From Bacteroidales bacterium (lineage in GTDB: Bacteria; Bacteroidota; Bacteroidia; Bacteroidales; VadinHA17), in assembly GCA_003141895.1 (NCBI GenBank), contig PLNT01000043.1, positions 20,813-84,812 of the forward strand: 64,000 bases of DNA, in the 5' to 3' direction. A program made the position numbers and the translations under genes. Positions 3,642-10,637 of the stretch are shown here, in pieces (position 1 is the first letter of the stretch; each line of letters starts with the position of its first letter). The notes under the pieces are model-generated. The model had not been told where the DNA came from. It was given only the letters and a program-made list of their open reading frames with translations, and ran no database searches.

Positions 3642-5072
3642 CTATTTGATTTTTTCAATAATAAATATATCGTGCCTGTCGAGATCACGCCAGTATTTAA
3701 GAGAGGTTTTTCTTACAAGTTCCCAATAGATATTATTATCAAGGCCATTAACAAAATTTATATCTTTCAGATCTGAAATAATCTTCTCTTCTATCTGCGA
3801 TTTAAGAGTTAATCTAATTTTCCGGTTCATATATGTAAATTCAGCTGATGGATTAGGAGGAATTTCATTTACTACCGTAAATAACCCATGTCCGGTAGTT
3901 GAACCTGTGCTGACCTGCAAACCGTCATTCATGCAGCTCAGCGGAGGATATGATCCAGCAAATGAAGTTGTATTGAACTCGTCAACTCCGGTATTAAAAT
4001 ATTCTCTTGCTCTGATACCCATTTTAACTCCAATGATGGAAAAAACACCTAGCTGACGATGTAACTCATTGGTAATTACTGATGATATCCACTCATCAGT
4101 ACCATATTTCTTAATGATTTCCGTGACAAAAGGTATCACGTCAGCAGAATAAAAAGATGAATCCATCGGAAACGATTTAATAACCTGATTTTTTTCAGCA
4201 GTTTCTCCTGCCAGCAATTTCAATACACTTTCGCGGAGTAAAGGGATATTTTCAGTGGGGCTTACAAAATAATCAGCTGTTGTATTGTATCGGAAAAGTT
4301 CAGGATAGTGTAAATAGACCGGAACCATTTCGTCAATTGCAGAATAGAGTAACTTACGGTTTTTTGATTTCTCATTCCGGAAGAATTCCGAGAATCTTGT
4401 TGCATATATTGTGGGAATTTCAGAGATAGATTTTATCATTAAATCGTTATAGAACGAGTCTTCCTTTAAGCTTATTACAGACTTAACAGGGATTTCAGCT
4501 TTCATTATTTTTTCAACAGCTGAAATATCAACCTGATAGTTAAAATGATTTTTGTCTTTTGGTCCGTTAGAACTCCAGATTATTTCCTTCACCTGTCGTT
4601 TGAAGTCGGGTACCTCTTTCATTGCCTGAGCAACAGTTGACATTCCTCCCAGGCATATAAAGCTCACCTTTGTTTTTTCAAATGACAGTACTTCTTTAAT
4701 TACACTTACGCAATCAGGAGCATTTTCCTCACTTAAATCATCTTCTTTACCCCACATAGTATTTAAGGGATCTGTATATTCTGGAGACTTGAACTTGCTG
4801 TTTTTATTAATTCCAACCGGAATACCTTCATGCCAGAAGGAGTTAAGGAGGCTTTTTACTTTTATATATACATTTTGTGTACTCAGGGCACCCGGGGAGA
4901 TTGTTATTGCAAGAACCCTGACATCGGGTGAAGCAAGAAGCAATGTGATTGCCCTGATATCCTCAATACCTCCGTCGGTATCTATTATTACGTAATGAGT
5001 TGGTTTCCAGGGATGTGAAAAAAGTGTAAGATTCAGAGCAATACATATAATTAATATCAGGAGTCTTTTCAT
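3642..5072 (-). CDS. secreted fusion protein: nucleoside hydrolase-like N-domain plus FmdE-like C-domain
   Basis: Signal peptide 'MKRLLILIICIALNLTLFS'. 'VIIDTDGGIEDIRAI' resembles the IUNH DxDxxxDD motif. The C-terminal 'GVKMGIRAREYF...LSCMNDGLQVSTGSTTGHGLFTV' resembles the FmdE-family core. Confidence 0.6.
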   Translation of the reverse strand: MKRLLILIICIALNLTLFSHPWKPTHYVIIDTDGGIEDIRAITLLLASPDVRVLAITISPGALSTQNVYIKVKSLLNSFWHEGIPVGINKNSKFKSPEYTDPLNTMWGKEDDLSEENAPDCVSVIKEVLSFEKTKVSFICLGGMSTVAQAMKEVPDFKRQVKEIIWSSNGPKDKNHFNYQVDISAVEKIMKAEIPVKSVISLKEDSFYNDLMIKSISEIPTIYATRFSEFFRNEKSKNRKLLYSAIDEMVPVYLHYPELFRYNTTADYFVSPTENIPLLRESVLKLLAGETAEKNQVIKSFPMDSSFYSADVIPFVTEIIKKYGTDEWISSVITNELHRQLGVFSIIGVKMGIRAREYFNTGVDEFNTTSFAGSYPPLSCMNDGLQVSTGSTTGHGLFTVVNEIPPNPSAEFTYMNRKIRLTLKSQIEEKIISDLKDINFVNGLDNNIYWELVRKTSLKYWRDLDRHDIFIIEKIK

Positions 5073-5163: not shown

Positions 5164-6693
5164 ATGAAACGATTTATATTATGGTTCATTCCAGGTCTTC
5201 TTGTTGGAGCCCTGATTATACTTGGTGCAGGAAAAGCACTGCAGGTGACATCCACTAATACATACTGTGTCTCCTGTCATATTCATCCGATGGCAGATTT
5301 TTCATGGAAGAAATCTATACATTATGATACCCGGTCGGGATACAGGGTTGCCTGCATCGAATGCCATCTTCCTCCCAAAGGTCATGGTTATCTCTGGGCA
5401 AAAGGTAAAACAGGTCTGCGCGATCTATGGAGTAAATGGACAAAAGATTCAGCTTCATTTAACTGGTCCGACAGAAGTCATCTTGAAGTTGCCCGAAATT
5501 ATGTGTATGAAAGCAGTTGCATAAAATGTCACGAGAATCTTTTCCCTGCAAAGCTTTCAAAAGCTGGTGAAGATGCTCATCTTTACTATACACAAACAAA
5601 AAAAACCGACGAACTGAATTGTATCAACTGTCATCTGAATGCCGGACATTTTATTGAAGGTTATACGCACGGAAGTAATTCAACATTTGGAAATACATCT
5701 TCAGCCGCAAAAGAAATATATACCGAGCCGGCAAAAGTTTCTGAATTTAAAAGCTTCACTGAGAGCATTCCAAAATCCTCTGTCTCTTTTAACATGGTAG
5801 CTATTCCGGGAGGGACTTTCCATTTAGGCAGTCCACTTTCCGAACCATTCAGGAAAGATGATGAAGGGCCTGTCAGGGAAGTTCGTCTGAGTCCGTTTTT
5901 CATGGCTGAGATTGAAGTTTCATGGGATGAATACCTTGCATTCTATGTACAGACAGCAGCTGAAGGCCGATCAACTGATACCGAAGGTCTGAGAAAAAAC
6001 AAAGCACTGGAAACTGATGCAATTTCCGGTGCAACTCCGCCTTACGGTCAGCCTGATCAGGGCTGGGGTCTGGGAAAAAGACCTGCTATCTCATTTTCTT
6101 TCCATGCGGCTGAGACCTATTGTAAATGGCTCAGTAAAGTCACCGGTAAGAATTATCGACTCCCGACCGAAGCTGAGTGGGAGTATGCCTGCAGGGCAGG
6201 ATCAGATGGACCCTATTTTTTCCCGGGAAATCCGAAGAAATTTGAAAAGACCGGATTAAGAGCAAAGCTTTCTAAAAATGATACAACAGTCATTAATACT
6301 TATGTTGTTTATAAGGGTAATAGTCCTGCAAAAACACAGCCTCCTGAAAGGGTTAAACCTAATCCATTCGGATTAATTAATATGACCGGGAACGTGGCAG
6401 AGTTTTGCGCCGATTGGTATCAGCCTGATGCTTACTCACGATATCCTTCCGGTGCCATAAATGATCCAAAGGGACCCTCTGAAGGAACTGAACATGTAAT
6501 TAGAGGCGGTTCCTTTCAGAGTTCGGCAGGTTATGTCAGAAGTGCATCACGCGACTATACAAAAACAGCGGCATGGTTAAAAACTGACCCTCAGATGCCA
6601 AAGAGCATATGGTGGTATTCCGATTGTTTCAATGTCGGTTTCAGAGTTGTTTGTGATTTTGATGAGAAAACCGGGAATATAAAAAAGGATTAG
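5164..6693 (+). CDS. membrane-anchored NapC/NirT-type tetrahaem cytochrome c fused to an FGE/SUMF1-like (sulfatase-modifying-factor fold) domain
   Basis: N-terminal TM helix followed by four CxxCH motifs (CVSCH, CIECH, CIKCH, CINCH). The C-terminal half carries 'MVAIPGGTFHLGS', 'YRLPTEAEWEYACRAG', 'GNVAEFCADWY' and 'RGGSFQSS...GFRVV', all typical of the FGE-sulfatase fold. Confidence 0.8.
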   Translation: MKRFILWFIPGLLVGALIILGAGKALQVTSTNTYCVSCHIHPMADFSWKKSIHYDTRSGYRVACIECHLPPKGHGYLWAKGKTGLRDLWSKWTKDSASFNWSDRSHLEVARNYVYESSCIKCHENLFPAKLSKAGEDAHLYYTQTKKTDELNCINCHLNAGHFIEGYTHGSNSTFGNTSSAAKEIYTEPAKVSEFKSFTESIPKSSVSFNMVAIPGGTFHLGSPLSEPFRKDDEGPVREVRLSPFFMAEIEVSWDEYLAFYVQTAAEGRSTDTEGLRKNKALETDAISGATPPYGQPDQGWGLGKRPAISFSFHAAETYCKWLSKVTGKNYRLPTEAEWEYACRAGSDGPYFFPGNPKKFEKTGLRAKLSKNDTTVINTYVVYKGNSPAKTQPPERVKPNPFGLINMTGNVAEFCADWYQPDAYSRYPSGAINDPKGPSEGTEHVIRGGSFQSSAGYVRSASRDYTKTAAWLKTDPQMPKSIWWYSDCFNVGFRVVCDFDEKTGNIKKD

Positions 6694-6795
6694 AAAACGT
6701 TTTTATTATTTGGGGATTCCTTGCTAACTCTTCAAACGACAATTTAACCGATAAACAGCTGTTTATCAGCCAAAGACTTCCTTGTTTTTAATTAA

Positions 6796-6876
6796 TTACC
6801 CCCTTCCCAACCTTCCCCCAAGGGGGAAGGAGTGGATCAACCTTTTCCCCCTTGGGGGAAATAAGAAAGGGGGTAA
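6796..6876 (+). repeat. Family A GC-rich structured intergenic element, copy 2
   Basis: Same outer stem and two inner hairpins as 1751-1829. Only the inter-hairpin spacer differs. Confidence 0.85.
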
Positions 6877-7006
6877 AAGCCAAAAAAAGAAATTAAAAGT
6901 GTCATTAATATTGGATTCCAAAATTGGATATTGATTCCCGCTAATGATATCAGCGTTAAAAATCCTTAAATGGAATTGTTAATTTGCTTTTTTGAAAGTC
7001 TATGTT

Positions 7007-7014
7007 TACATTTG
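7007..7014 (+). promoter_or_regulatory. candidate Bacteroidota -7 promoter element (TAnnTTTG)
   Basis: TACATTTG lies 62 nt upstream of the ATG at 7076. This is a motif match only. Confidence 0.3.
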
Positions 7015-7075
7015 ATTACATTCAAAACTAACTTAAAGAATAATATATTTATCAGTTGCTTAAACCTTATCTAAT

Positions 7076-8443
7076 ATGAAAAAATCAAGTATTTCGAGGC
7101 GTAATTTTCTTGGCAAAGCAGCTACAGTAGGCATGGCAGGAGTAATAGTTCCTTCCATTATTACAAGTTGTTCCCGCGAACCCAGGAAAGTAGTTCAGAT
7201 ACCAACCATGCTTGACCAGGCACCTGACGGCCCGGTTATTAAAGCCGGAGTTATAGGTTGTGGTGGTCGCGGAACAGGAGCAGCAATCAATTTCTTAAGT
7301 GCCGGACCAAATCTTAAGATTGTTGCTTTAGGTGACACATTCCAGGACAGGATCGATTCATGCAGGGCAGAGATTCTAAAACAAAAAGGACAGGACGTTC
7401 CTCTTGACAAGTGCTTTGTTGGTTTCGACGCTTATCAGAAAGTACTTGATGCCGGTGTTGATCTTGTTATTCTTGCTACACCGCCTTTCTTCCGTCCCGA
7501 TCATCTTGCAGCAGCAATACAGGCTAAAAAACATGTTTTTGCAGAAAAACCGGTTTGTGTTGACCCTGTTGGGGCAAGATCGGTGATGGCTTCTTCACAA
7601 AAGGCTAAAGGGATGGACCTAAGCATAGTTACAGGCACTCAGCGCAGGCATCAGCGCGACTATATTGCCACATGGCAGCAGGTGGGTCAGGGTACAATTG
7701 GAGATATAATGAGTGGTAATGTTTACTGGAATGGCGGTAAACTCTGGCATCGTGATCCAAATGCAAAATGGAGCGAAATGGAATATATGATCCGTAACTG
7801 GGTTAACTGGACCTGGCTTTCAGGAGATCATATAGTAGAACAACATGTACACAATCTGGATGTAATGAACTGGTTTACAGGTACACATCCGGTAAAAGCA
7901 GTTGGATTTGGTTCACGTTTGCGCCGTGTTACTGGTAATCAGTATGATAATTTCAGCGTCGACTTTGAATTTGAAGACGGCAGACATTTTCACAGTATGT
8001 GTCGCCAGATTAATGGTTGTGCAGAAAATGTATCTGAAAGGATACAGGGCTCAAAAGGATCTGCATTTTTATCGCAGAGTCAGGATGTTTATATGAAGGA
8101 TCTTAAGGGAAATGTTATCTGGAAATATGATTATCCTGTCGATGAGACCGGGAAACCTTCAAAATCTAAAATGGTGGATCCATATGTACAGGAACATATC
8201 GACCTTGTTACAGCGATTCGTACAAACAAACCAATTAATGAGGCTGAAAATACAGCAATCTCAACAATGATGGCAATTATGGGTCGAATATCAGCTTACA
8301 CTGGGAAAGAAACAACTTATGAGGAAATGATGAACTCCGACCTTAAGCTTGGGCCAAAAGTATTTGTTCTTGGTCAGGTTGATGTCGACAAAAGTATACC
8401 AATAGCAGGATTGGCTTATGTACCTGAAAACGCAACAAAATAA
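7076..8443 (+). CDS. Tat-exported Gfo/Idh/MocA family oxidoreductase
   Basis: Twin-arginine signal 'SRRNFLGKAATVGMAG', Rossmann motif 'GVIGCGGRGTG' and 'EKPV' are typical of the family. Confidence 0.85.
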   Translation: MKKSSISRRNFLGKAATVGMAGVIVPSIITSCSREPRKVVQIPTMLDQAPDGPVIKAGVIGCGGRGTGAAINFLSAGPNLKIVALGDTFQDRIDSCRAEILKQKGQDVPLDKCFVGFDAYQKVLDAGVDLVILATPPFFRPDHLAAAIQAKKHVFAEKPVCVDPVGARSVMASSQKAKGMDLSIVTGTQRRHQRDYIATWQQVGQGTIGDIMSGNVYWNGGKLWHRDPNAKWSEMEYMIRNWVNWTWLSGDHIVEQHVHNLDVMNWFTGTHPVKAVGFGSRLRRVTGNQYDNFSVDFEFEDGRHFHSMCRQINGCAENVSERIQGSKGSAFLSQSQDVYMKDLKGNVIWKYDYPVDETGKPSKSKMVDPYVQEHIDLVTAIRTNKPINEAENTAISTMMAIMGRISAYTGKETTYEEMMNSDLKLGPKVFVLGQVDVDKSIPIAGLAYVPENATK

Positions 8444-8448
8444 TTAAA

Positions 8449-9393
8449 ATGGATTATTCAAGGAGAAATTTCATAAAGAAAAGCACTGCAACAGGAGCTG
8501 CAATTTTAGCCGCTCCTGCAGTTTTTGGCAATATTTCTTTGCCAAAGAGACAGAAAGCAGCCGATGCAACGGAACCATTCAAACTGAAATATGCTCCGGG
8601 ATTTGGCATGTTTCACGAACATGCTGGTGATGACCTTATCGATAATATCAGGTTTTGTCACGACATGGGCTTCAGAGCAATGTTCGATAATGGTTTGATG
8701 ACGCGGCCCCTTGCCGATCAGACAAAGATAGCCAATGAGATTCATCGGCTGGGGATGGACCTTGGTCCCTTTGTTTTGTATGCTGATTTTTCAGTGACCT
8801 CATTTGTACTTAACAAAGAGGATATCCGACAAATGCTGGTAAGCAAGATGAAAGAAGGGGTGGAGGTTGCTAAACGGACAGGTGTTAAATGGGCCCTGGT
8901 TGTGCCCGGCAGGTACGATGAAAGACTCCCTCGCGATTATCAGACAGCAAACGTGATTGACAACCTAAGATATTGCTGTGATATTATGGAACCTGCCGGC
9001 CTGACAATTGTACTTGAGCCATTGAATACTATTCACGATCATCCAGGGTTATTCCTTAACGGAATACCACAGGCTTATGCAATTTGCAGAGCAGTTAACA
9101 GGCCAGTTTGTAAGATTGTTGACGATATTTATCATCAGCAGATTACTGAAGGGAACCTGATTCCAAATATTGAAGCTGCCTGGAGTGAGATTGCTGCTTT
9201 CCATCTGGGTGATAACCCGGGAAGAAATGAACCGACAACCGGGGAAATCAACTTCAAAAATGTTTTCAAATATATCTACAGCCGTAAATATGATGGTGTA
9301 CTGTGTATGGAACATGGAAACCACGATAAAGGTAAAGAGGGAGAACAAAAGGTAATTCAGGCATACCGCGAATGCGATAGCTTTGAAATATAG
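8449..9393 (+). CDS. Tat-exported xylose-isomerase-like TIM-barrel protein (hydroxypyruvate isomerase-like sugar phosphate isomerase/epimerase family)
   Basis: Twin-arginine signal 'SRRNFIKKSTATGAAILAAPA'. Motifs 'LEPLN', 'DDIYHQQITEGNL', 'HLGDNPGRNEPTTGEINF' and 'LCMEH' are Hyi-like metal-site motifs. Confidence 0.8.
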   Translation: MDYSRRNFIKKSTATGAAILAAPAVFGNISLPKRQKAADATEPFKLKYAPGFGMFHEHAGDDLIDNIRFCHDMGFRAMFDNGLMTRPLADQTKIANEIHRLGMDLGPFVLYADFSVTSFVLNKEDIRQMLVSKMKEGVEVAKRTGVKWALVVPGRYDERLPRDYQTANVIDNLRYCCDIMEPAGLTIVLEPLNTIHDHPGLFLNGIPQAYAICRAVNRPVCKIVDDIYHQQITEGNLIPNIEAAWSEIAAFHLGDNPGRNEPTTGEINFKNVFKYIYSRKYDGVLCMEHGNHDKGKEGEQKVIQAYRECDSFEI

Positions 9394-9533: not shown

Positions 9534-10637
9534 ATGAAAAAATTCTTATTCCCAGTCCTTGTATCTGTTCTTATTATTACGACATCAGTATCATCTTTCA
9601 GCCAGCCAATAAGATTATTTGCCGGCAGATATACCGACAGCGGAGGGAAGGGACTGTATCTCTTTGATTTAAACCGTGAATCCGGAACTTTTAAAGAGTT
9701 ATCTGAGGCGGAAGCCGGTCCAAACCCATCATATTTCTGTCTTTCAAAAAAGAAAGGGTTGATTTACGCTGCAAATGAGGTTATGGAATTCAATGGTGTC
9801 AACGGCGGAGGTGTAACTGCATTAAAATATGACCCGAAAAATGGAAGTATTGAAAAGATCAAAGATTTATTAGTGCCTGATGGCGGACCCTGTTTTATAT
9901 CGATAACACCAGATGAAAGCTATTTATTACTGGCCAATTATTCAAGCAGTTCAATTTCTGTTGTAAAGTTAGACGCCGATGGAATTCCAGACAGTGTTAC
10001 TGATAAAATAGCGTTCCCTGAAAATGACGGAAAGGTTTCTCATCCTCATATGATTTCTTTTGGTCCGTCAGGGAAAGTTTATCTGACTGATCTTGGGCTT
10101 GACAGGATTGTGATCTATGATTTTGATAATGGGACAGGGAAACTAAGCCAAAGTGGCATTATCAACTTTCCGAAAGGAACAGGCCCACGACATTTTGTAT
10201 TTAATTCCAGCGGAACAAAAATGTACGTTATCTGTGAGCTTAATTCAACAATATCGGCCCTGGATGTTGATAAAGATGGTGGGTTAAAATTAATTCAGAC
10301 TCTGTCAGCTCTTGCGGAAGATTTTAAAGGTGAAAGTAATTGTGGTGACATTCACCTGGGCAACAACAAGCAGTATCTTTACGGATCAAACAGGGGTGAA
10401 AACACAATTGTTGTATTCAAAATTGAAACTGACGGGAAATTGAAACTTGCCGGAAGAACTTCATGCGGAGGTGTCTGGCCAAGAAATTTCGTTATCGATC
10501 CGTCTGGAAAATATCTTCTTACAGCAAATCAGAAATCCGGGAATATTGTTCTCTACAAAATCGATTCGAAAAGCGGCCTTCCTGTTGCGACTTCAAAAGA
10601 GTTTAAAATTGATTCACCTGTTTGCCTGAAATTTTAG
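9534..10637 (+). CDS. secreted 7-bladed beta-propeller lactonase (Pgl/YbhE-type 6-phosphogluconolactonase family)
   Basis: Signal peptide. Repeated blade motifs and 'GPRHFVFNSSGTKMYVICELNSTISALDVD' and 'PRNFVIDPSGKYLLTANQKSGNIVLYKID' are typical of this lactonase family. Confidence 0.8.
   Translation: MKKFLFPVLVSVLIITTSVSSFSQPIRLFAGRYTDSGGKGLYLFDLNRESGTFKELSEAEAGPNPSYFCLSKKKGLIYAANEVMEFNGVNGGGVTALKYDPKNGSIEKIKDLLVPDGGPCFISITPDESYLLLANYSSSSISVVKLDADGIPDSVTDKIAFPENDGKVSHPHMISFGPSGKVYLTDLGLDRIVIYDFDNGTGKLSQSGIINFPKGTGPRHFVFNSSGTKMYVICELNSTISALDVDKDGGLKLIQTLSALAEDFKGESNCGDIHLGNNKQYLYGSNRGENTIVVFKIETDGKLKLAGRTSCGGVWPRNFVIDPSGKYLLTANQKSGNIVLYKIDSKSGLPVATSKEFKIDSPVCLKF

Follow-up and report, generated by a model that had tools for sequence, protein, structure and literature searches.

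The cytochromes of the NrfH, NapC, CymA and cM552 group (PF03264) have a single N-terminal transmembrane (TM) anchor, four CxxCH haems and a lysine and an aspartate at the quinone site, and the partners of the NrfH/NapC type are nitrite, nitrate or TMAO reductases. Cytochrome cM552 is a precedent for a NapC/NirT family member that runs in the quinone-reducing direction. The FGE fold is that of the formylglycine-generating enzyme (FGE, SUMF1), which has a Cu(I)-binding cysteine pair, and of PvdO. Flavin carriers modified by ApbE (the FMN_bind domains of NqrC, RnfG, NosR and PplA, and the DUF2271 and DUF3570 proteins) are extracytoplasmic, have ApbE genes adjoining and carry on an exposed loop the flavinylation motif, defined as D-x-x-[S/T]-G-A-[S/T] (PMC12052999). 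Their proposed role is that of a one-/two-electron relay to membrane cytochromes (PMC8238504, PMC12052999).

Periplasmic oxidation of sugars and glycosides is described for LacABC glucoside 3-dehydrogenase, ThuAB, GFOR and BT2158. Catalytic subunits exported by Tat with a bound cofactor are found among the cytochrome-linked sugar dehydrogenases, GFOR and BT2158, and systems of the LacABC/ThuAB type have co-encoded TIM-barrel enzymes that process keto-sugars. In GFOR and BT2158 the NAD(P) is thought to be recycled on a second sugar, with no respiratory outlet known (PMC8121099). The authors of the BT2158 work in B. thetaiotaomicron proposed the acceptor only as "another as yet unidentified sugar", and reasoned that, with so short an electron transport chain, Bacteroides could not have cytochrome c-dependent dehydrogenases (PMC8121099). 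The fate of the reducing equivalents on Tat-exported, NAD(P)-carrying Gfo/Idh/MocA (GFO) enzymes is an open question, which the fusion family described here may address.

The window, that is, the whole stretch of DNA analysed (64,000 nucleotides from a Bacteroidales bacterium), encodes a cytochrome fused to an FGE-like domain and, downstream, a GFO enzyme. The features of the locus are as follows.

5164..6693, + strand: whole fusion gene (P0001, 509 aa), comprising TM anchor, NapC/NirT tetrahaem module, linker and signature FGE-like domain
5173..5232, + strand: N-terminal TM anchor, about residues 4-23 (hydrophobic stretch; AF2 helix 2-29)
5179..5652, + strand: NapC/NirT/NrfH-type tetrahaem domain, residues 6-163
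5266-5280, 5353-5367, 5518-5532 and 5620-5634, + strand: CxxCH motifs, residues 35-39, 64-68, 119-123 and 153-157
5656..5733, + strand: linker, residues 165-190, of low confidence (pLDDT <50 at 165-181) and poorly conserved (variable alignment columns)
5755..6663, + strand: FGE-fold domain of the signature subfamily, residues 198-500, with S453 and V458 in place of the cysteine pair
6016..6036, + strand: DAISGAT, D285-T291, exact ApbE flavinylation motif, with T291 as the proposed FMN attachment site
6574..6624, + strand: second family signature WLKTDPQMPKSIWWYSD, residues 471-487, inserted with respect to canonical FGE and part of the predicted dehydrogenase interface
6694..7075, no strand: spacer of 382 bp between the fusion and partner genes, with palindromic elements at 6743-6774 and a GC-rich part at 6813-6860
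7076..8443, + strand: partner gene, a Tat-exported lipoprotein-type GFO oxidoreductase
8449..9393, + strand: Tat-exported xylose-isomerase-like TIM barrel, a frequent third member of the module
9534..10637, + strand: Sec-exported 7-bladed beta-propeller lactonase, of uncertain module membership (same order in the same-genus genome G521)

The reading that we prefer, with a probability of about 60%, is that the fusion is the electron-transfer subunit of a periplasmic dehydrogenase:menaquinone oxidoreductase, in which the GFO would be catalytic and the FGE-like domain would carry a flavin.

The fusion is a single uninterrupted ORF (5164-6693, + strand) with a stop-free translation of 509 aa. Its N-terminal half matches Pfam Cytochrom_NNT (residues 6-163, E 2.3e-25, 89.8 bits against a cut-off of 24.1) and its C-terminal half matches FGE-sulfatase (PF03781; residues 210-464, E 4.6e-44, 151 bits against a cut-off of 23.3), so both halves are what the first-pass annotation had taken them to be, a NapC/NirT-type cytochrome and an FGE-fold domain. 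The same annotation had considered that the fusion might be a frameshift artefact or be restricted to one genome. The artefact is excluded because, of the more than 7,900 homologous proteins retrieved, all 120 listed have the same two domains and a length of ∼510 aa; moreover, 34 of the 301 genomes sampled within the order carry the gene (25 of 208 genera). The AF2 model had a pLDDT of 79 and a pTM of 0.64, with low confidence in the linker and in the motif loop, residues 268-300 (pLDDT <55).

The fusion shares with the PF03264 cytochromes the N-terminal anchor, the four haems and the two quinone-site residues. All four CxxCH motifs are invariant in 28 orthologues, four further histidines of the module (41, 53, 139 and 162) are invariant, and so are K80 and D87, which align with the quinone-site K82 and D89 of D. 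vulgaris NrfH (2j7a_C). A phmmer search of the PDB with the N-terminal 190 aa gave no match; a profile of N-terminal halves (n = 20) matched the same NrfH chain at E 2e-11. The fusion scored far below all NCBIfam equivalog cut-offs, including those for NrfH (66.5 against 134.2), NapC/NirT (49.5 against 310.6) and TorC (61.6 against 478). The ligand of haem 1 is a methionine in NrfH (CxxCHxM; Met49 position), whereas the fusion has the invariant His41 (CxSCHxH), and unlike NrfH, NapC, CymA and cM552 the fusion has a C-terminal FGE-fold domain and a GFO dehydrogenase as its partner. A third Cytochrom_NNT match in the genome (on contig C23) was considered as part of the system and rejected, being a different multihaem protein.

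The fold of the C-terminal domain, common to FGE and PvdO, was supported by matches to T. curvata FGE (tcFGE; 6s07, E 6e-28) and, with Foldseek, to FGE structures at ∼E 1e-16, the best Foldseek match being PvdO (5hha, E 1e-18). The domain contains RGGSFQSSAGYVRSASRD, and the two copper-binding cysteines of tcFGE (GGSFLCHESYC) align with Ser453 and Val458, FLCHESYC being placed against FQSSAGYV. The cysteine pair is missing, as had been noted before, and is present in none of the signature proteins. Judged by its sequence, the domain lacks the FGE active site and should be unable to make formylglycine. It also scored below the NCBIfam equivalog cut-offs for PvdO (dihydropyoverdine dehydrogenase; 113.7 bits against 500) and for the GldK/PorK T9SS ring lipoprotein (100.7 bits against 350), and the N-terminus of the fusion is a TM-anchored cytochrome without the lipoprotein signal of GldK/PorK. 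The genomic context is unrelated to sulfatases or to pyoverdine.

The first-pass annotation had looked to metal or active-site residues as those that matter, and had allowed for their loss across orthologues. No conserved metal-ligand set was found in the FGE-like domain in the orthologue alignment; the signature residues that are conserved form two loops peculiar to the family, DAISG[A/P]T and W..TDPQxPKSxWWYSD, the first matching the ApbE motif and both placed at a predicted interface with the GFO (below). Compared with FGE and PvdO, the subfamily carries two insertions of its own.

The partner GFO has an SRRNFL Tat motif, a lipobox cysteine, a GCGGRGTGA NAD loop and EKP and HxxD catalytic motifs, and fell into no NCBIfam equivalog (64 bits for iolG, cut-off 355; 26.8 for BT_2158, cut-off 750). 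Of 33 loci in other genomes, 29 have a GFO orthologue (50-75% identity) as the next gene downstream, in the same orientation, and in two more it adjoins the fusion but is convergent. Two same-genus loci (L012 and L014) appeared to be GFO-less, which was rejected when longer flanks revealed the gene 2.4 kb (G521) and 9.3 kb (G639) downstream. The gap between fusion and GFO is only ∼10-100 bp in most relatives, and a promoter/terminator scan of the 382-bp spacer gave nothing above shuffled expectation that bears on co-transcription. This spacer with its palindromes, and the wide separation in G639, count against the preferred reading. A Tat-exported GFO of this type occurs in exactly the same 34 of the 301 genomes as the fusion. 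The genome has a paralogue of the fusion (59% identity) on a different contig, followed after 25 nt by a GFO; this paralogous operon encodes a BT_2158-like GFO and a ThuA protein. The TIM barrel resembles hydroxypyruvate, 2-oxo-tetronate or keto-sugar isomerases or epimerases. The locus has the TIM-barrel enzyme in common with systems of the LacABC/ThuAB type, and the proposed system would share with the described ones both periplasmic sugar oxidation and a Tat-exported catalytic subunit with bound cofactor. LacABC differs in combining an FAD-containing GMC enzyme with a separate cytochrome c, whereas here the gene next to the GFO encodes a dedicated haem, and possibly flavin, subunit.

The association extends to the wider subfamily of FGE-like domains that carry the signature loops, which is found in at least six phyla. 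These domains stand alone or are fused either to NapC or, in loci of Verrucomicrobiota, Planctomycetota and Acidobacteriota, to PSCyt1, an unrelated haem c module; the haem-less stand-alone forms still pair with GFO and ApbE. Eighty loci from GTDB species genomes were surveyed, of which 58 have FGE-like genes with the signatures and 22 have generic FGE genes. Within 6 kb of the 58 signature genes there were 40 with GFO, 19 with ApbE and 14 with the TIM barrel, against none for each around the 22 generic genes (Fisher p = 8e-9, 1e-3 and 8e-3, respectively, with relatives that are not independent).

The FGE half was modelled in complex with the GFO, FMN and NAD with a score of 0.71, the best of three controls giving 0.00. 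Among solved complexes 58 of 80 reach this level, as do 2 of 110 mismatched pairs, counts that apply only roughly here because custom alignments were used and ligands were included. The runs shared at least 78% of contacts, with a partner pLDDT of at least 93. The modelled contacts involve residues 291-300 and 470-479 on the fusion side and, on the GFO side, the Gly-rich NAD loop (64-69) and residues 218-225, and both signature loops are predicted to form this interface.

The interface and the gene linkage require binding alone and no flavin. It is accordingly conceivable, though we think it unlikely, that the FGE-like domain has no cofactor and serves as a scaffold, either positioning the GFO next to the tetrahaem module or simply tethering the GFO to the membrane, the Thr291 loop being an interface element only and the nearby ApbE of other phyla serving another substrate; PorK/GldK are FGE-fold proteins that are purely structural. 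The loop itself bears on this choice. DAISGAT (residues 285-291) is an exact match to the ApbE motif, and D285, G289 and T291 are invariant in the orthologue alignment. In the wider subfamily a hydroxyl residue, T or S, is kept at the acceptor position in 55 of 55 signature proteins and Asp at −6 in 52 of 55, which argues against a mere scaffold. The core of the motif favours it: G-A in the canonical motif is usually x-P in the subfamily (Gly in 11 of 55, Pro in 48 of 55) and is x-P in most non-Bacteroidales signature proteins, and SGPT is the sequence in roughly half of the fusions from Bacteroidales. In one fumarate reductase, flavinylation was halved by G-to-A and A-to-V substitutions (PMC12052999). 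The strict motif gave nine matches in the 3,138 ORFs of the genome, two of them the two fusions and one an FMN_bind protein; the motif alone was rejected as proof of flavinylation, because about five of the nine fall in proteins of the cytoplasm or outer membrane and appear fortuitous.

The genome encodes an ApbE (G000 C7:56136-57158). In Bacteroidales the single ApbE sits elsewhere in the genome and is needed anyway for FMN_bind proteins. In the survey, only 1 of 12 four-haem fusions has an ApbE within 6 kb. The adjacency of ApbE to 19 of the 58 signature loci and to none of the 22 controls is harder to reconcile with docking alone, as is a Sphingobacterium operon, FGE-like-GFO-ApbE-TIM, in which no other known ApbE substrate is encoded. 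The GFO was rejected as the ApbE target because its Gly-rich loop, TGAA, is without a conserved final Ser/Thr. Also against a scaffold without cofactor, a bound NAD(P)H can only give up two electrons at a time and haems accept one, so that a mediator would be needed. The fusion resembles the ApbE-flavinylated carriers in being extracytoplasmic, in its exact motif on an exposed loop, in the ApbE genes that adjoin many of its relatives and in its proposed relay role. It differs from them in its FGE/C-type-lectin-like fold, which is not a described ApbE substrate class, and none of the known FMN-carrying Pfam domains FMN_bind, NqrB/RnfD, DUF2271 and DUF3570 was found in it. FGE-sulfatase is not mentioned in the eLife 2021 survey (PMC8238504), a 2024 preprint (10.1101/2024.03.13.584918) or a 2025 review (PMC12052999), and a limited literature search found no publication on a NapC/FGE-like fusion, a GFO-ApbE link or FGE-like flavinylation.

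Under the preferred reading, of an electron-transfer subunit with a flavin, the GFO would be exported folded via Tat with tightly bound NAD(P), and would oxidize a sugar- or polyol-type secondary alcohol. The FGE-like domain would dock on the NAD face of the GFO via its two family-specific loops, with FMN attached by ApbE to Thr291 of the DAISGAT loop through a phosphoester bond. This covalent FMN would take hydride from the GFO-bound NAD(P)H and pass electrons singly to the four c-type haems, and the NapC/NirT module would reduce menaquinone at the NrfH-like site beside the membrane anchor. By established midpoint potentials, electrons would run downhill from NAD(P)H (−320 mV) via flavin and haems to menaquinone (∼−74 mV). 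The periplasmic redox role that the first-pass annotation gave to the FGE-like domain is supported, but its picture of an enzyme fed by quinol oxidation is not: the evidence favours an adaptor, probably a flavin carrier, between GFO and haems, and the likely direction is therefore quinone reduction, from dehydrogenase to menaquinone.

That the FGE-like domain is itself the catalyst, a PvdO-like or metal-dependent oxidoreductase acting on a periplasmic small molecule with menaquinol electrons delivered by the NapC module, seems improbable. NapC/NirT proteins classically oxidize quinol, and PvdO is the best NCBIfam as well as the best Foldseek match of the domain; however, the domain reaches only 113.7 of the 500 bits required for PvdO, the cysteine pair is missing with no conserved metal-ligand set, and the conserved residues sit on a predicted protein-protein interface. 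Such a catalyst would also leave unexplained why the fusion co-occurs perfectly with, and lies adjacent to, a single GFO subfamily, and why haem-less stand-alone forms are still paired with GFO and ApbE. Least probable of all is reverse flow, from menaquinol through haems and flavin to GFO-bound NAD(P)+, with the GFO reducing a periplasmic keto-sugar or balancing two sugars, for which there are a precedent in the ping-pong oxidation and reduction on one bound cofactor of Z. mobilis GFOR (cited in PMC8121099) and a co-encoded TIM-barrel isomerase that handles keto-sugars, but in which menaquinol (−74 mV) would have to reduce NAD(P)+ (−320 mV), strongly uphill without energy input, and which fits less well than donor-to-cytochrome c flow with the PSCyt1-fused forms of aerobes.

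If the preferred reading of a flavin-bearing electron-transfer subunit is extended to the whole subfamily, the odds seem to us balanced that the signature FGE-like domain is a new, widespread ApbE-flavinylated module that makes respiratory dehydrogenases of a bound-NAD(P) GFO subfamily in at least six phyla. The NapC-type haems would then deliver electrons to menaquinone in anaerobic Bacteroidales, and the PSCyt1-type haems to the aerobic chain in Verrucomicrobiota and Planctomycetota.

The fusion family offers a testable answer for one large GFO subfamily, in the form of a dedicated flavin and haem subunit that would drain electrons into menaquinone. If this is true, the FGE fold would join the ApbE substrates, and thousands of genes named "formylglycine-generating enzyme" or "SUMF1/EgtB/PvdO family nonheme iron enzyme" would be mis-annotated. 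Anaerobic Bacteroidales of sediments, wetlands and guts would have an energy-conserving periplasmic sugar oxidation, and bacteria of at least six phyla would gain a previously unrecognized route from periplasmic sugar oxidation to respiration.

The open reading frame at 5164-6693 on the forward strand is intact and its translation gives a product of 509 aa. All four CxxCH motifs, and likewise the hydrophobic helix at the N-terminus, lie where the first-pass annotation had placed them, and HMM searches bore out both proposed halves, with Pfam matches to Cytochrom_NNT (residues 6-163, E 2.3e-25) and to FGE-sulfatase (residues 210-464, E 4.6e-44). In NCBIfam, the nearest families were NrfH, TorC and NapC for the N-terminal half and PvdO, GldK and EgtB for the C-terminal half, all scores being far under the equivalog cut-offs. 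The domain had also been described as lacking the FGE cysteine pair, and alignment to T. curvata FGE indeed places Ser453 and Val458 at the copper-binding cysteines. The AF2 model of the whole fusion (mean pLDDT 79, pTM 0.64) is confident for the TM helix and FGE core, with a floppy linker at residues 165-181; in Foldseek, PvdO came first, followed by FGE structures.

A word-indexed search retrieved >7,900 proteins, and the 120 matches listed all had the fusion-like architecture at ∼510 aa, which rules out a frameshift or other artefact. Bacteroidales MAGs account for most of the listed homologues, whose database names are ‘formylglycine-generating enzyme’ or ‘SUMF1/EgtB/PvdO family nonheme iron enzyme’. 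The protein is very likely a real tetrahaem-FGE-fold fusion. It extends beyond one genome, being present in 3 of 401 genomes sampled phylum-wide and in 34 of 301 same-order genomes (25 of 208 genera, spread across many families), and full-length fusions form just a handful of clusters in a 50%-identity representative library (P0125-P0127, P0170, P0138). A 59%-identical paralogue is encoded on contig C8 of the same genome, and relatives of the FGE-like half (44-54% identity) also occur as stand-alone secreted proteins.

The loci discussed below are as follows.

Genes and operons of the fusion and its relatives
5164-6693, forward strand: NapC/NirT tetrahaem-FGE-like fusion
6694-7075: 382-bp spacer between the fusion and GFO genes, with palindromic elements
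7076-8443, forward strand: Gfo/Idh/MocA (GFO) oxidoreductase gene, next downstream of the fusion; twin-arginine signal and lipobox cysteine
L004:5280-10739, reverse strand, contig C8: paralogous four-gene operon of NapC-FGE fusion, GFO, BT_2158-like GFO and ThuA-domain protein
L054:5959-12862, Sphingobacterium sp. N143: operon of haem-less FGE-like protein, Tat-GFO, ApbE and TIM barrel

The next genes after the GFO in the window encode a xylose-isomerase-like TIM barrel exported by Tat and a lactonase exported by Sec. An orthologue of the GFO (50-75% identity) lies directly downstream of the fusion on the same strand in 29 of 33 loci of other genomes, and is adjacent but convergent in two more. 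In the remaining two, from same-genus genomes G521 and G639, it lies downstream at a distance of 2.4 kb and 9.3 kb, respectively, so that in this genus the junction is a hot spot for insertions. The gap is just ∼10-100 bp in relatives; the spacer in the window contains a hairpin of 16+16 nt (6743-6774), followed by a GC-rich pair of self-complementary 16-mers (6813-6828 and 6845-6860). At a threshold of E <= 1e-90, the GFO was found in exactly the 34 same-order genomes, out of 301, that carry the fusion. On contig C8, a GFO orthologue begins 25 nt after the paralogue, followed by the BT_2158-like GFO (GFO_IDH_MocA_C2; NCBIfam E 1.3e-41, under the cut-off) and the ThuA protein; these four genes were found again in an uncultured Bacteroidia MAG (L083). 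Functionally, the fusion protein is very probably partnered with the GFO. In some genomes a single fusion coexists with several GFO paralogues (five, on different contigs, in the same-order genome G631), which suggests that the fusion may be a hub for several dehydrogenases, perhaps with different substrates. Divergent and upstream of the fusion is a gene for a secreted inosine-uridine nucleoside hydrolase fused to an FmdE domain (3642-5072, reverse strand); it is shared with G639 (L014, 53% identity) but is absent from more distant relatives and is therefore probably not part of the module.

Alignment of 28 fusions revealed two invariant insertions that are missing from canonical FGE.

Signature insertions of the FGE-like domain
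Insertion 1: D285-A-I-S-G-[A/P]-T291-P-P
Insertion 2: W471..TDPQxPKSxWWYSD487

Scanning GTDB with one genome per species yielded 80 loci, 58 with these signatures and 22 generic FGE-family loci without them. The signature loci, placed by MAG names, fall in Planctomycetota, Verrucomicrobiota, Acidobacteriota, Gemmatimonadota, KSB1, Brocadiaceae and several Bacteroidota classes, and cultured carriers include Sphingobacterium sp. N143, Pedobacter sp. Hv1, Eudoraea adriatica DSM 19308 and Tautonia sociabilis. Of the 58 signature genes, 40 have the GFO, 19 an ApbE flavin transferase and 14 the TIM barrel at a distance of no more than 6 kb, whereas none of the three lies near the 22 generic loci (Fisher p = 8e-9, 1e-3 and 8e-3, respectively, values that exaggerate the association as relatives are not independent). 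The stand-alone relatives P0139, P0252 and P0166 are each beside a GFO, two of them also directly beside ApbE. The N143 operon contains no other known ApbE substrate; it runs on into genes for a nucleoside:H+ symporter-type MFS transporter and a GMC oxidoreductase, which may hint at the substrate oxidised. Loci named Verrucomicrobiota, Planctomycetota and Acidobacteriota have the FGE-like domain fused not with NapC but with class-I haem domains of the PSCyt1 type, one or two per protein. That the domain has been combined with c-type cytochromes of two unrelated kinds is an argument for electron exchange between it and haem. A further architecture is a 723-aa signature protein from a Limisphaerales MAG (L047:4684-6855), whose long N-terminal extension has no CxxCH and a weak FG-GAP match.

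NAD(P)H bound in the GFO gives a hydride while haems take single electrons, FMN being the usual converter, so that a flavin would solve the NAD(P)H-to-haem problem. ApbE transfers FMN to the last Ser/Thr of D-x-x-[S/T]-G-A-[S/T] (PMC12052999; PMC8238504), and DAISGAT in the fusion is an exact match. The strict motif occurs nine times in the 3,138 ORFs of the whole proteome, which includes one ApbE: in the two fusion paralogues, an FMN_bind protein and a DoxX-like protein beside a multihaem cytochrome, the other five probably being chance matches. All 55 signature proteins have T/S as the acceptor and 52 have the Asp; however, the G-A core is mostly x-P, so the recognition motif would be a variant if these x-P proteins are flavinylated. 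The flavin hypothesis is weakest on this point. The DoxX-like protein, on contig C23 (512 aa, L005:9644-11182 = L133), carries a DoxX domain at its N-terminus and, at residue 209, an exact DAVSGAT flavinylation motif, and lies directly downstream of a 499-aa multihaem cytochrome (L005:7991-9490, partial Cytochrom_NNT match); the pair may form a further haem-flavin membrane redox module of a different kind.

For a complex model, residues 186-509 (the FGE half) were folded together with mature GFO (residues 40-455), FMN and NAD. The complex scored 0.71 against 0.00 for the best of three controls; 58 of 80 solved complexes attained this mark, as did 2 of 110 mismatched pairs, though this calibration is only rough here (own alignments, ligands present). 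Runs had at least 78% of contacts in common, with partner pLDDT of at least 93. We know of no solved FGE-fold/GFO complex for the model to recall, and the prediction supports binding of the FGE half to the GFO. The confident predicted interface comprises, on the fusion, residues 291-300 (starting at Thr291), 470-479 and 486-489, which in the model are the two family signatures, and, on the GFO, the Gly-rich dinucleotide loop (64-69), 218-225, 313-319, 334-336 and 364-370.

A profile of 20 N-terminal halves matched D. vulgaris NrfH (2j7a_C) at E 2e-11, with invariant K80 and D87 aligned to NrfH K82 and D89. NrfH haem 1 has Met49, whereas the fusion has the invariant His41 at the aligned position; with His53, His139 and His162, the four extra invariant His suffice for bis-His ligation to be possible. 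The match, K80/D87 and the His conservation point to a genuine quinone-interacting NapC/NirT family member, outside every named equivalog.

In the best-supported chain, a substrate alcohol would reduce GFO-bound NAD(P)+, the resulting NAD(P)H would reduce FMN on Thr291, and electrons would pass via the four haems c to menaquinone; terminal reductases of the organism would then reoxidise the menaquinol. We put the probability that the fusion carries covalent FMN and feeds quinone in this way at roughly 0.6. Standard potentials suggest this direction, as do the forms fused to PSCyt1 in aerobes. Matches of the GFO to iolG and DgpA/BT_2158 are weak, and the co-exported TIM barrel resembles isomerases and epimerases of keto-sugars and keto-acids, a likeness that would fit a reaction in which a hydroxyl of a sugar, inositol or glycoside is oxidised to a ketone.

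Each of the parts is of a known kind, namely NapC/NirT quinone modules, flavin relays of the ApbE type and GFO enzymes exported by Tat. Neither their combination nor a flavin-tagged FGE fold was described in the literature searched. Sphingobacterium sp. N143, being cultured, is tractable for experiments. Liu et al. (PMC8121099) explicitly left open how the periplasmic GFO enzymes of Bacteroides have their cofactor reoxidised. We rate the system as akin to membrane-linked periplasmic dehydrogenases with cytochrome subunits, and there is a realistic chance that the FGE-like domain is an additional class of ApbE substrate.
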